Source: a phage
Reading direction: 5' to 3' (one strand)
DNA length: 64,000 nt
NCBI GenBank assembly: GCA_011835815.1
Contig: GCA_011835815.1_3615.1
Program-made: the position numbers and the translations under genes
In this document: positions 50,425-54,437 of the stretch, piece by piece
How positions within the stretch are numbered: the stretch's first letter is position 1
Layout of the letters: every line of letters begins with the position of its first letter
Notes under the pieces: generated by a model
The model's database searches: none
The model's input: only the letters and a program-made list of their open reading frames with translations
What the model was told of the DNA's origin: nothing

Positions 50425-50499
50425 GCCCTGTTAGCTTAGTGGATAAAGCAGCGGCCTTCTAAGCCGTTGACACTGGTTCGAGTCCAGTACGGGGTGCCA
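50425..50499 (+). tRNA. tRNA-Arg (anticodon UCU)
   Basis: Hand-folded cloverleaf: acceptor GCCCTGT/ACGGGGT, anticodon loop CTTCTAA, T-loop GGTTCGAGTCC, encoded CCA. Confidence 0.75.
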
Positions 50500-50629
50500 A
50501 GTTCTTTTTAATGTAGCTTACTTTAGCAGAGTAAATCTTCGGCAAGTGGCGGTAACCACTTTACCGATACCTCATAGTTAGTGGTGAGAACACTAGCTAT
50601 TTTAAAAAGAATTTAAATATTAGTATTTA

Positions 50630-50717
50630 GGTGAGTTAATTCCGTAGGGGTAGCGGGGCAGACTGTAAATCTGTTATCATTGCGATTCGGGTGGTTCGAC
50701 TCCATCACTCACCACCA
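50630..50717 (+). tRNA. tRNA-Tyr (anticodon GUA), class II
   Basis: Acceptor GGTGAGT/ACTCACC, anticodon arm GCAGA-CTGTAAA-TCTGT, long variable arm, T-loop GGTTCGACTCC, CCA; D-arm register uncertain. Confidence 0.65.
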
Positions 50718-50821
50718 AATTTATATTTTTAAATGCATAAATCATACAGATAATGGCATTGATATTTATCGTCGTTTATACTAGTCACTAACTGCTCGAA
50801 AATCAGTGTCATTATCAGTAT

Positions 50822-50912
50822 AATTTATAAAGGAGGGTAGGGAGCAATGGTGCTCAAGCGGTCTTGAAAACCGCCCCGTTGAGGATGACTCGATGATGGT
50901 TCGATTCCATTA
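50822..50912 (+). tRNA. tRNA-Ser (anticodon UGA), class II
   Basis: Acceptor GGAGGGT/ACTCTCC, anticodon arm GCGGT-CTTGAAA-ACCGC, long variable arm, T-loop GGTTCGATTCC, CCA. Confidence 0.65.
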
Positions 50913-51020
50913 CTCTCCGCCACATTGTTGACCTTGTAATTAAGCGAAAGCCGGAAGCAGAACCGGATTATCAAATGTTACAGTCGTCATCGCCGACTAG
51001 CAACATGGTCAACATACTGA

Positions 51021-51119
51021 GCTAGGTAAGCCCTTTGGCAAGGGCGAGGATTTTTAATCCTGAAAATAGACGAGGTAGTCGTTGAATACATAGGTGGTTC
51101 GATTCCATCGCCTAGCACC
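51021..51119 (+). tRNA. atypical tRNA-like gene (about 97 nt), anticodon possibly UUU (Lys)
   Basis: Perfect acceptor GCTAGGT/GCCTAGC, D-arm GCCC-TTTGGCAA-GGGC, anticodon-like hairpin GAGGA-TTTTTAA-TCCTG, canonical T-arm; but about 30 nt inserted between anticodon stem and T-stem. Confidence 0.4.
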
Positions 51120-51124
51120 TTTTT

Positions 51125-51200
51125 GCTGATGTAGCACAATCGGTAGTGCAATTGATTTGTAATCAATAGGTTGTAGGTTCAAGTCCTGCCATCAGCACCA
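51125..51200 (+). tRNA. tRNA-Thr (anticodon UGU)
   Basis: Acceptor GCTGATG/CATCAGC, D-stem GCAC/GTGC, anticodon arm ATTGA-TTTGTAA-TCAAT, T-loop GGTTCAAGTCC, CCA. Confidence 0.75.
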
Positions 51201-51201
51201 A

Positions 51202-51276
51202 GGCCCTGTAGCTGGAAGGTTCAAGCAAGCGACTCATAATCGCCAGACGGTGGTTCAATTCCACCCAGGGCCACCA
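51202..51276 (+). tRNA. tRNA-Met or Ile2 (anticodon CAU)
   Basis: Acceptor GGCCCTG/CAGGGCC, anticodon loop CTCATAA, T-loop GGTTCAATTCC, CCA; not initiator-like. Confidence 0.7.
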
Positions 51277-51287
51277 AATAGTAAATA

Positions 51288-51364
51288 CTCCGCGTAGCTC
51301 AGCTTGGTAGAGCGCCTGATTTGGGATCAGGAGGTCGAGTGTTCGAATCACTCCGTGGAGACCA
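51288..51364 (+). tRNA. tRNA-Pro (anticodon UGG)
   Basis: Acceptor CTCCGCG/CGTGGAG, D-stem GCTC/GAGC, anticodon arm CCTGA-TTTGGGA-TCAGG, T-loop GTTCGAATC, CCA. Confidence 0.75.
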
Positions 51365-51785: not shown

Positions 51786-52184
51786 ATGATTTCAGTTTTA
51801 ACATGGCTGAGTAGGTATAAAGGGATCATAAAAGGTTTAGTTTTTGCAGCTGCGATAGGTACAGCTTATCTTGGGGCCGTGTATTGGTTTAACTCTAAGC
51901 TTAATGATGCCTACCAGGAGGGTGTGTCAGCAACAGAGTTAAAGTGGGAACGGATCCTTGATCAGCAACAAAAGCAGGCCGACAAGATTAAAATGGGCCA
52001 CGCAGAGGAGGTTAAAAACCTTGAAAAATCTCTTTCTGATCTGCAGGATAAATTAAATATAGCTGAGAGGGCAGGTAGAGAAAAGCAGATTATCTACCTC
52101 CAATCACCTGAAGGTAAGAAGTCAACACTCCCTGATCAGCTTATAGATATTTATAATGAGAGTATCAATCAGGAGGATCGATGA
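51786..52184 (+). CDS. i-spanin (Rz-like inner membrane spanin subunit)
   Basis: 132 aa; N-terminal TM helix then charged coiled-coil-like periplasmic domain; followed by overlapping lipoprotein gene. Confidence 0.6.
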   Translation: MISVLTWLSRYKGIIKGLVFAAAIGTAYLGAVYWFNSKLNDAYQEGVSATELKWERILDQQQKQADKIKMGHAEEVKNLEKSLSDLQDKLNIAERAGREKQIIYLQSPEGKKSTLPDQLIDIYNESINQEDR

Positions 52185-52468
52185 GAGTTGCTGCACTGTT
52201 TATTGTGTGCTTTTTATTATGTGGGTGTGCAACCAGCGTTGAGAGAGAATACAAGATTGACCCTCCAGATGTAGGAAGGTTGATTGTTAAACCCCCGGAA
52301 GGTGCCATGAAACCACCTGCTAAAGCTATACCTTTGAAGAAAGGTGCTCCAGATGCAGTAAATTCTGGCATTATGAGGGATAATAATTTGTCTTGTAGCA
52401 ATGATAGAGCTAAATTGATCATTTTGCAAGACTATATTAGAACACTGTTTCCAAAGGAGAGAGGTTAA
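52181..52468 (+). CDS. o-spanin (Rz1-like outer membrane lipoprotein)
   Basis: 95 aa; signal peptide with lipobox-like LLCGC, Pro-rich mature region; start overlaps i-spanin stop (ATGA). Confidence 0.6.
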   Translation: MRVAALFIVCFLLCGCATSVEREYKIDPPDVGRLIVKPPEGAMKPPAKAIPLKKGAPDAVNSGIMRDNNLSCSNDRAKLIILQDYIRTLFPKERG

Positions 52469-52893
52469 TGTCTAAGATTTACGGACCGTGTTCTGAAAAG
52501 CAGAAGATGATCCTCGAAAACGATGCAGATATTTTGGTAATCGGCGGTGCCGCAGGGTCTGGCAAGTCGTTCCTCTTGCAGTTGATGCCGCTTAAAATTA
52601 TTGATGACCCCCACAGCTCTGTGGTTATGTTCCGAAGAACAACCCCACAGTTGGAAGGTGAGGGTGGGCTATGGCCTAAAGCAGTAGCTATTTATAGTGA
52701 TCTGCCTGAAAACATTAAGCCAAAGTTCAGAGAGAAGGATCATAAGTTCATTTTCCCACGGTTTGATCCGAGCACTGGCAAGTGGGATAGAAGCAAAAAG
52801 GGAGCTGTTGTAAAATACTGCCACATGGAGTATGTCCAAGATAAGCTTAACCATCAAGGTCTTGAGTACACCATGGTTTGCTTCGATGAGGGT
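52468..52893 (+). CDS. terL: terminase large subunit, exon 1 (ATPase N-terminus)
   Basis: Walker A VIGGAAGSGKS and Walker B-like MVCFDEG; reading frame is broken by a stop just after FDEG where the intron begins. Confidence 0.8.
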
Positions 52894-53213
52894 TAATTTG
52901 TAGCTCTCGTAAAACCTCCCTAATTGCGGGGAAATCTTTACTATTAATACCACCAACCTGTCATGGTAACATGATAGAGGCTTCGAAGAGAGATCGAAGG
53001 TATGGTAACAGTGTGTTAATTTAGATAATCCGCAGCGAAGCATCCGAGAGGATGAACGTTCAACGACTAGTCGAAAGACGTAGAATCAAGCGATTCGAAA
53101 CGGGAGGGTAAGCGGTTGTTGTCGCTTATAAGATATAGTCTGGTCTGCATGGAGACATGCAGCTGCCTGAAAAATGGCGGGGCAAGACTAGCGACCTTGC
53201 CCGAACATAGACG
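52894..53213 (+). other. group I self-splicing intron (no ORF) within terL
   Basis: Conserved core elements in order: P AATTGCGGGGAAA, Q AATCCGCAGC, R GTTCAACGACTA, S AAGATATAGTC; exon ends in U that can pair with internal guide GCTCTC; intron ends in G; P9-like hairpins; boundaries +/- 3 nt. Confidence 0.8.
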
Positions 53214-54335
53214 ACACAATTCGAATGGGAGCAGATAGACTATCTGATGTCTCGTCTGCGATCTCAGTCAAAGTATCCATCAAGAATGGTTATCAGCTGT
53301 AACCCCGATTCAGAACACATGCTTGCCAAACTGGTTAGATGGTGGTTGGACGATGAAGGGTATCCAGATCCGGAGAAATGCGGTAAGAAAAGATATTTTA
53401 TCCGACGCGACGGTGAATTTATATGGGGAGATTCTAAAGAAGAGTTGATAGAGAAATACACCACGGTTAACGGACTGGGTGTGGAGATCAAGCCAAGACC
53501 GTTGTCATTCTCGTTTATAGGCGCAACAATATTCGATAATCCTGTTTGCTTAAGAGACAACCCAGAATATCTTGCTTTCCTTGAAGGTCTGCCGGAACTG
53601 GAAAAAGCTCAGCTTCTTCATGGTAACTGGTTTGCAAAGCCTGAGGGTGCAAACTATTTTCAAAGATCTTTCCTTCGTGATGCCGATAGAGTACCCCTTG
53701 GATCAGTATCTTGCAGGGCATGGGATAAGGCAGGAACCGAGAGAACTTCCGGTAATAAATTTCCTGACTTTACCGCCAGTATTAAGGTAAGTAAAGATAG
53801 CGACGGCTTTTATTACCTGTCCGGTGATTATTGTCCTGAGAACGTGGATGACGGGAGGTATTCCACAGGTCTGGAAGGCAAGTTCTGTAAAAAGGCTGGT
53901 GAACGAGATGTGATCATCAGGAAACAGGCGCAGTTTGATGGTGATGATTGCATAATCGTATTCTCTGTGGACCCTGGTCAGGCAGGTAAGAGTGAGTTCT
54001 TAACCTCATCCAGATCCTTGCTCGCCGAAGGGTTCAGGGTTGAAGAAGACCCAATGCCTTCCAACAAATCTAAACTGACAAGGTTCTCACCTTTTGCCAA
54101 TCTTGCACAACAAGGAATGGTGAGGATTGTAAAATCCAGTTTCCATCCTGATACTCTGGAAGCATTTCTGACTGAACTTGAAAAATTCAACGGGGAAAGA
54201 TCAACATTTAACAGAAAAGACGACTGGGCAGACTGTGTAGCTTCTGCGATTAATTTCCTGGAGAAAGAGGAGGTAGCACTTCCTTGTGTGATTCCATCAA
54301 TCTCATCACCTTCTATGTTCAAGCGTTTTATCTAA
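53214..54335 (+). CDS. terL: terminase large subunit, exon 2 (remainder incl. nuclease domain)
   Basis: In-frame continuation TQFEWEQIDYLMSRLRS... after the intron; track ORF starts at internal Met 53247. Confidence 0.75.
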   Translation, partial: TQFEWEQIDYLMSRLRSQSKYPSRMVISCNPDSEHMLAKLVRWWLDDEGYPDPEKCGKKRYFIRRDGEFIWGDSKEELIEKYTTVNGLGVEIKPRPLSFSFIGATIFDNPVCLRDNPEYLAFLEGLPELEKAQLLHGNWFAKPEGANYFQRSFLRDADRVPLGSVSCRAWDKAGTERTSGNKFPDFTASIKVSKDSDGFYYLSGDYCPENVDDGRYSTGLEGKFCKKAGERDVIIRKQAQFDGDDCIIVFSVDPGQAGKSEFLTSSRSLLAEGFRVEEDPMPSNKSKLTRFSPFANLAQQGMVRIVKSSFHPDTLEAFLTELEKFNGERSTFNRKDDWADCVASAINFLEKEEVALPCVIPSISSPSMFKRFI

Positions 54336-54437
54336 GTGTTGCCAATCTTAATTAGATGTGGTAGAATAGAGTAATCGGAGATACTAGCCCTCTAACACGA
54401 GGGCTATTTTGTTATACTGTTTTGAGGGGTAAAGCTT

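Follow-up and report, generated by a model that had tools for sequence, protein, structure and literature searches.

The 64,000-nucleotide stretch of phage DNA analysed here (the window) carries at positions 52894-53213 what we consider, with a probability of about 95%, to be an ORF-less group I intron of the IA type, inserted in the ATPase domain of the terminase large subunit (TerL) and identical in kind to terL intron 1 of phage rV5. The source is a Vequintavirus (an rV5-like coliphage), and its terL locus is 99.5% identical to that of phiWec191. The intron itself is already known: it has been annotated in rV5 since the GenBank deposit of that genome and was discussed in 2013 (PMC3606486). 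Because the same intron is annotated and published for rV5, its presence in the window is an ordinary, known feature.

The two coding parts of terL are plainly visible in the reading frames. A first-pass annotation of this DNA had noted that the terminase ORF stops right after MVCFDEG and that the rest of the protein resumes about 320 nt later in a compatible frame, and both observations hold. The ORF at 52468-52896 on the + strand encodes 142 amino acids with MVCFDEG at the C-terminus and is closed by TAA, and the corresponding DNA up to the junction aligns with positions 1-426 of the intron-less Murica terL. Downstream, the frame is open from 53214 to 54335. Its first ATG lies at 53247 and is preceded by 11 codons (TQFEWEQIDYL), a segment that is kept in uninterrupted homologues down to 40-60% identity. 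The spliced join 52468..52893,53214..54335 is a 1548-nt CDS for a 515-residue TerL. In this product the Pfam family Terminase_6N matches residues 25-294 with 72.6 bits, across the junction at 142/143, and Terminase_6C matches with 27.0 bits; both scores are above the curated cut-offs.

The surroundings of terL agree with those of annotated relatives. By homology, genes for an i-spanin (51786-52184) and an o-spanin (52181-52468) lie directly upstream, and the stop codon of the latter overlaps the start codon of terL (TAATG at 52465-52470). Downstream of terL, a hairpin at 54385-54406 resembles a terminator and corresponds to the one annotated in rV5. The lysis and terL genes are closely preceded by a tRNA cluster (50425-51364), for which ARAGORN predicts six genes: Arg-tct, Ser-tga, Thr-tgt, Met-cat, Pro-tgg and an unusual 'tRNA-???' of 99 nt with a 4-base anticodon (51021-51119). 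Rfam adds a weak tRNA-like match at 50630-50714 (39 bits) that is absent from the ARAGORN calls.

Intron-less relatives fix the boundaries of the insertion to the base, a comparison that the first-pass annotation had proposed. In a DNA alignment, exactly 52894-53213 is absent from the terL genes of Murica and MaxTheCat, two phages of the same genus in which the gene is uninterrupted and 1548 nt long. The insertion point cannot slide, since the bases at its edges differ (T/G versus A/T). The intron borders read GGT/TAATTT...GACG/ACA (slashes mark the splice sites) and have no flanking target duplication. The spliced CDS of the window is 98.5% identical to Murica terL, with 2 amino acid differences in the product, and an 84-residue peptide spanning the junction has a 100% match, in one piece, in intron-less genomes. 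Exact-sequence look-ups found the spliced 515-residue product to be the same as the TerL deposited for RudolfGeigy and for the intron-less FFH2, and showed that the terL of HeinrichReichert, when spliced, gives the TerL of Murica. The intron-less alleles thus bear out the junction proposed earlier, 52893/53214, which yields ...MVCFDEG-TQFEWEQ...; the product length given with it, roughly 516 residues, is to be corrected to 515. We also considered a 3' splice site at G53210, which would be in frame, would give DEG-TTQF and a 516-residue product, and would allow a slightly longer P10. This site was rejected because the extra Thr is absent from the intron-less alleles and from all homologues, and because 6 of the 8 intron copies compared have A at position 53210.

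The insertion has the signature of a group I ribozyme. In the covariance-model search that had been suggested as a check, Rfam RF00028 (Intron_gpI) aligns in full (model positions 1-253 of 253) to 52884-53162, on the + strand only, with 84.1 bits (E 6.2e-20; the curated gathering threshold is 50 bits), so that the whole core is threaded. The match ends at P9 (53162), and the final 51 nt form an extra hairpin and a tail that leads to the terminal G. With a permissive Rfam cut-off (E up to 0.05), no other family matches the insertion and no other intron is found in the 64-kb window. The predicted fold is also unusually stable, with a free-energy z-score of -4.49 against dinucleotide shuffles, and none of 100 shuffles was as stable. 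The conserved elements P, Q, R and S had been reported in canonical order, and we located each of them at the positions listed in Table 1.

The segment had also been described as lacking an ORF. We found no homing endonuclease ORF in the 320-nt intron, and stop codons occur throughout all three + frames. The only + strand ORF of at least 30 amino acids that touches the intron is a 40-residue ORF with a TTG start (53116-53238), which runs across the 3' splice site. Two minus-strand ORFs, at 52669-53043 (124 amino acids) and 53067-53219 (50 amino acids), were treated as spurious, since both start inside the intron and could not exist in the intron-less half of the genus.

Table 1. Features of the terL locus and predicted elements of the intron (window coordinates)
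Feature	Position	Strand	Description and basis
terL exon 1	52468..52893	+	142 codons, Walker A GAAGSGKS to Walker B MVCFDEG; ORF list
terL exon 2	53214..54335	+	373 codons and stop; frame compatible with exon 1
Group I intron without ORF	52894..53213	+	320 nt; Rfam RF00028, absence from Murica and MaxTheCat, stops in three frames
Element P AATTGCGGGGAAA	start 52922	+	one occurrence in the 64-kb window
Element Q AATCCGCAGC	start 53027	+	one occurrence in the 64-kb window
Element R GTTCAACGACTA	start 53058	+	one occurrence in the 64-kb window
Element S AAGATATAGTC	start 53130	+	one occurrence in the 64-kb window
P1	52888-95 / 52901-08	+	exon GAGGGU and intron UA with internal guide UAGCUCUC; cmscan alignment, pair list
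P3	52915-52920 / 53102-53107	+	CCUCCC / GGGAGG; model alignment, pair list, MFE fold
P4	52925-30 / 53029-34	+	encloses P5 and its extension
P5	52934-37 / 53023-26	+	with 78-nt extension
P5 extension hairpins	52958-52977, 52981-52999	+	GUAA loop in the first; pair list, MFE fold
P6 and P6a hairpin	53035..53059; P6a 53041-53054	+	P6 2 bp; P6a with GAGA loop; model alignment, pair list
P7	53065-53069 / 53136-53140	+	GACUA (in R) / UAGUC (in S); pair list
P7.1	53070-79	+	GUC-GAAA-GAC, GAAA loop
P7.2	53083-96	+	GAAUC-AAGC-GAUUC
P8	53110..53127	+	short 18-nt hairpin
P9	53145..53162	+	7 bp, GAGA loop
P9.x, extra 3' hairpin	53180..53202	+	7 bp; past the end of the Rfam model
Terminal guanosine (omega-G), 3' splice site	53213	+	invariant in 8/8 copies; fixed by intron-less alleles

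The helices in Table 1 were placed from the covariance-model alignment and an explicit listing of pairs, and an unconstrained minimum free-energy fold of the intron recovers most of them, P3 included. The U52893·G52903 wobble in P1 marks the 5' splice site. The sequence features on which the original proposal drew are in place: the guide GCTCTC, described as lying ten bases into the intron, begins with intron base 10, at 52903; exon 1 ends in T52893 (U in the RNA); and the intron ends in G53213. There is no P2, as only 6 nt separate P1 from P3. P7, the guanosine-binding helix, is pseudoknotted with P3. A possible P10, read directly from the sequence, is weak and has at most 3 bp (A53214-U52901, C53215-G52900 and A53216-U52899). 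In the classification of Michel and Westhof, extra helices P7.1 and P7.2 between P7 and the 3' strand of P3 are typical of subgroup IA, and by this criterion the intron is IA-type. On the minus strand, P9.x together with the A-run at 53168-53172 resembles an intrinsic terminator (a 9-bp stem, then CGCCATTTTT); this resemblance is probably incidental.

Sequence variation in the helices was followed across 8 Vequintavirus copies of the intron. Of the substitutions that fall within helices, five keep the pair as a wobble, one is disruptive and one is a compensatory double change. The compensatory change, from C-G to U-A at 52962/52973 in the P5 extension, occurs in rV5 and A13b. A change at 53042 turns an A-U pair into G·U and thereby keeps the P6a pair, and in one relative the L7.1 loop changes from GAAA to GAGA, which keeps the GNRA class. 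HeinrichReichert (sequence L003) has a G-to-A mismatch in P9.x. Further apparent mismatches of L003, L008 and L009 at 53108-53162 were discarded as artefacts, since MAFFT had mis-aligned P8-P9 between the short and long forms of the intron. Against the more distant phiKZ intron, two double-compensatory pairs are found in P7.2 and one compensatory C-G to U-A change in P9.x.

The structure suggests how terL would be expressed. The gene would be transcribed as a single pre-mRNA, in which the intron would fold into the P3-P9 core and P1 would arise from pairing of the guide with the end of exon 1, GAGGGU, the U52893·G52903 wobble lying at the splice site. An external guanosine would attack after U52893. 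G53213 would then take the P7 site, and the 3'-OH of exon 1 would attack after G53213, joining GGU to ACA and producing an mRNA for the 515-residue TerL. RNA that stays unspliced would yield only the 142-residue fragment, which ends right after Walker B. We infer actual splicing, the catalytic steps presumably following the established group I mechanism. Terminase production would then, on sound grounds, depend on splicing. A literature search for experimental splicing of the rV5-type terL intron 1 found none, the rV5 paper having used BLASTX; the phages that carry the intron are viable isolates with joined CDS annotations.

A two-piece terminase would explain the same ORFs without splicing. 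The 142-residue and 362-residue products would be translated separately and would assemble into TerL, the spacer staying in the RNA. Several GenBank records, including that of the closest relative phiWec191, indeed list two separate proteins, and the 142-residue product has been deposited on hundreds of contigs. However, the second product, if started at the first ATG of exon 2, would lack the conserved TQFEWEQIDYL, the intron has no promoter-like site on the + strand, and the break falls inside a single Terminase_6N ATPase domain. The identical protein is encoded by one uninterrupted ORF in half of the genus, and the supposed spacer scores 84 bits as a ribozyme. We therefore regard separately translated halves as very improbable.

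It is about equally improbable that the insertion is a decayed, splicing-dead relic and terL a pseudogene in this phage. A homing endonuclease has been lost or was never present, as might be expected of a decaying element, but the core elements are all intact, substitutions in the helices preserve pairing, and neither the U at -1 nor the terminal G varies. Moreover, isolates whose intron is 97-100% identical to this one form plaques, and their examined records contain no second terL. Other explanations of the insertion, for instance as a group II intron, as a miniature transposable element or as an artefact of assembly, can practically be dismissed. All that speaks for them is that 320 nt are inserted, while Intron_gpI is the sole Rfam family matched at E up to 0.05, no target duplication flanks the site and about 53 independent genome records share the insertion.

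A group I intron, of the self-splicing type, remains by far the best reading, and its distribution in the genus is patchy. Counting the intron as present where at least 80% of its length is found, about 53 phage records carry it, and 66 have a contiguous junction and no intron; together these make up the roughly 120 close relatives found. Beyond the intron-less state, five layouts of the locus occur among the relatives. The window represents one of them, with the ORF-less intron 1 alone, and another has intron 1 with a 196-residue endonuclease. The other three combine intron 1, short or long, with a second intron at CDS position 743/744, of which there is an ORF-less version of 268 nt and a version of 979 nt with an HNH gene. 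Among the relatives, no locus was seen to combine the endonuclease-bearing intron 1 with the 268-nt intron 2. In RudolfGeigy, the second terL intron is a 268-nt, ORF-less group I intron (95.6 bits). In the window, the site at which rV5 has its second terL intron (53530/53531) is empty. The flank of this site reads ACC AT/AT in intron-bearing alleles and ACA AT/AT in the window and Murica, a synonymous difference linked to the presence of intron 2.

The window's copy has no endonuclease, and relatives have an EndoVII gene at P8. This suggests either that the copy has lost its endonuclease or never gained one, or that the intron is a passenger mobilised in trans.

The bases at the junction of intron 1 are linked to its presence. 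The junction is GGT/ACA in all eight intron-bearing alleles and GGC/ACG in every sampled intron-less allele; the differences, at -1 and +3, are synonymous. T at -1, found in all 8 intron-bearing alleles, permits the P1 U·G pair, and C at this position would replace the essential wobble with a C-G pair. The linkage could reflect a constraint from splicing, or, as the ordinary alternative, co-conversion of flanking markers during homing. With C at -1, the empty site may in addition resist the EndoVII-type endonuclease of the long form. A more far-reaching proposal is that competition between co-infecting Vequintaviruses actively maintains the polymorphism, with the ORF-less intron and GGC/ACG as alternative 'immunity' states against the EndoVII-type endonuclease. 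We put this forward only tentatively and consider it rather unlikely. A genus with 97-99% identity, roughly half of which has the intron, nevertheless offers a convenient natural setting in which to study how introns home and are lost, with both ORF-less and endonuclease-bearing forms and linked synonymous changes in the flanks. Such a use would be incremental.

Some records in this survey call for comment. About 18-24 entries titled 'UNVERIFIED: Campylobacter phage' (MG065635-MG065690; L008 is an example), with C. jejuni given as host, are 97-99% identical to E. coli Vequintaviruses and are probably mislabelled or contaminant genomes. Escherichia phage V18 (NC_041937) also has terL in two CDSs. 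We rejected it as a case of the intron: its junction has a short duplication (GGTTTGCTTGGTTTGCTT) and a missing G, which cause a frameshift, probably through a sequencing or assembly error.

The analysis also bears on database annotation. The 142-residue and 362-residue products have been deposited as stand-alone proteins, named 'terminase family protein' or 'hypothetical protein', in phiWec191 and on hundreds of contigs, many of them labelled E. coli or Shigella. Since its halves stand as separate entries, the split terL is widely mis-annotated. In the window, the halves should be joined as 52468..52893,53214..54335. Correct precedents exist: the rV5 GenBank record joins terL from three pieces, its first intron being the intron of the window, and records of BASEL phages annotate the same join in two or three pieces.

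Among known systems, the closest is terL intron 1 of rV5 (DQ832317 / NC_011041, CDS 'ORF64ABC'), which lies in the same gene at the same site in the same ORF-less form (319-320 nt). It is 96.9% identical to the intron of the window over 320 nt, has the junction GGT/...G/ACA and scores 84.9 bits in Rfam, and when rV5 is spliced at the equivalent junctions the product is the deposited ABI79304.1. Unlike the window, rV5 has a second terL intron of 979 nt with an HNH endonuclease at CDS 743/744. In the section 'Introns in terminase' of the rV5 paper (Kropinski et al., 2013, Virol J 10:76, PMC3606486), terL was assigned to three segments by BLASTX, D. Shub was thanked for help in locating the intron, and the terL intron of LL-H was cited as the sole precedent. 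The LL-H intron, from 1995, was the first group I intron reported in a phage terL. Phage terL introns of this class have been known since then, and the present case accordingly has little bearing on discovery. Compared by description, LL-H differs from the window in being an unrelated siphovirus of a Gram-positive host, with an intron that carries an endonuclease.

The long form of intron 1 (for example in HeinrichReichert with accession MZ501073, in 241Ecol014PP and in 'A13b') occupies the same site and is nearly identical to the window's intron over P1-P7.2 and S-P9-P9.x. It is 883 nt long (1095-1977 of the HeinrichReichert sequence L003; also in L008 and L009). A 196-residue Endonuclease_7 ORF (PF02945, E 3e-21) replaces its entire P8, rather than being inserted into P8. 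The AUG of this ORF lies in an apparent long replacement P8 stem, and its TAG stop lies inside the conserved S element. An Rfam scan at the gathering threshold gave no match for intron 1 of HeinrichReichert, intron 2 of rV5 or the intron of Pectobacterium phage CB7. This is a limitation of the tool, since an ORF insert of 560-700 nt breaks the alignment to the model.

Outside the genus, the nearest intron is that of phiKZ gp72/gp73 (87.6 bits), which is 73% identical to the window's intron over P6-P9.x. P7, the P7.2 loop, the P9 stem and the 3' tail are the same, and the P9 loop is GUGA in phiKZ and GAGA in the window. A P2 and a short P5 distinguish the phiKZ intron from that of the window, which has a 78-nt P5 extension and no P2. 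T-even introns (for example in nrdD of JSE) share about 81% over S-P9.x. The phiKZ and T-even introns both reside in host genes other than terL.

In CB7, a Certrevirus of the same subfamily, terL is interrupted at the Walker B motif by a group I-type intron whose splicing was demonstrated by RT-PCR in infected cells (PMC7344957). The CB7 intron (381-1350 of sequence L014) carries an HNH gene and separates the D codon from the E codon, at a point 6 nt upstream of the site in the window, and only a short core similarity connects the two introns. We therefore rejected the notion that they are the same intron. With a site 6 nt upstream and an unrelated sequence, the CB7 case indicates that two different introns have hit almost the same spot in terL.
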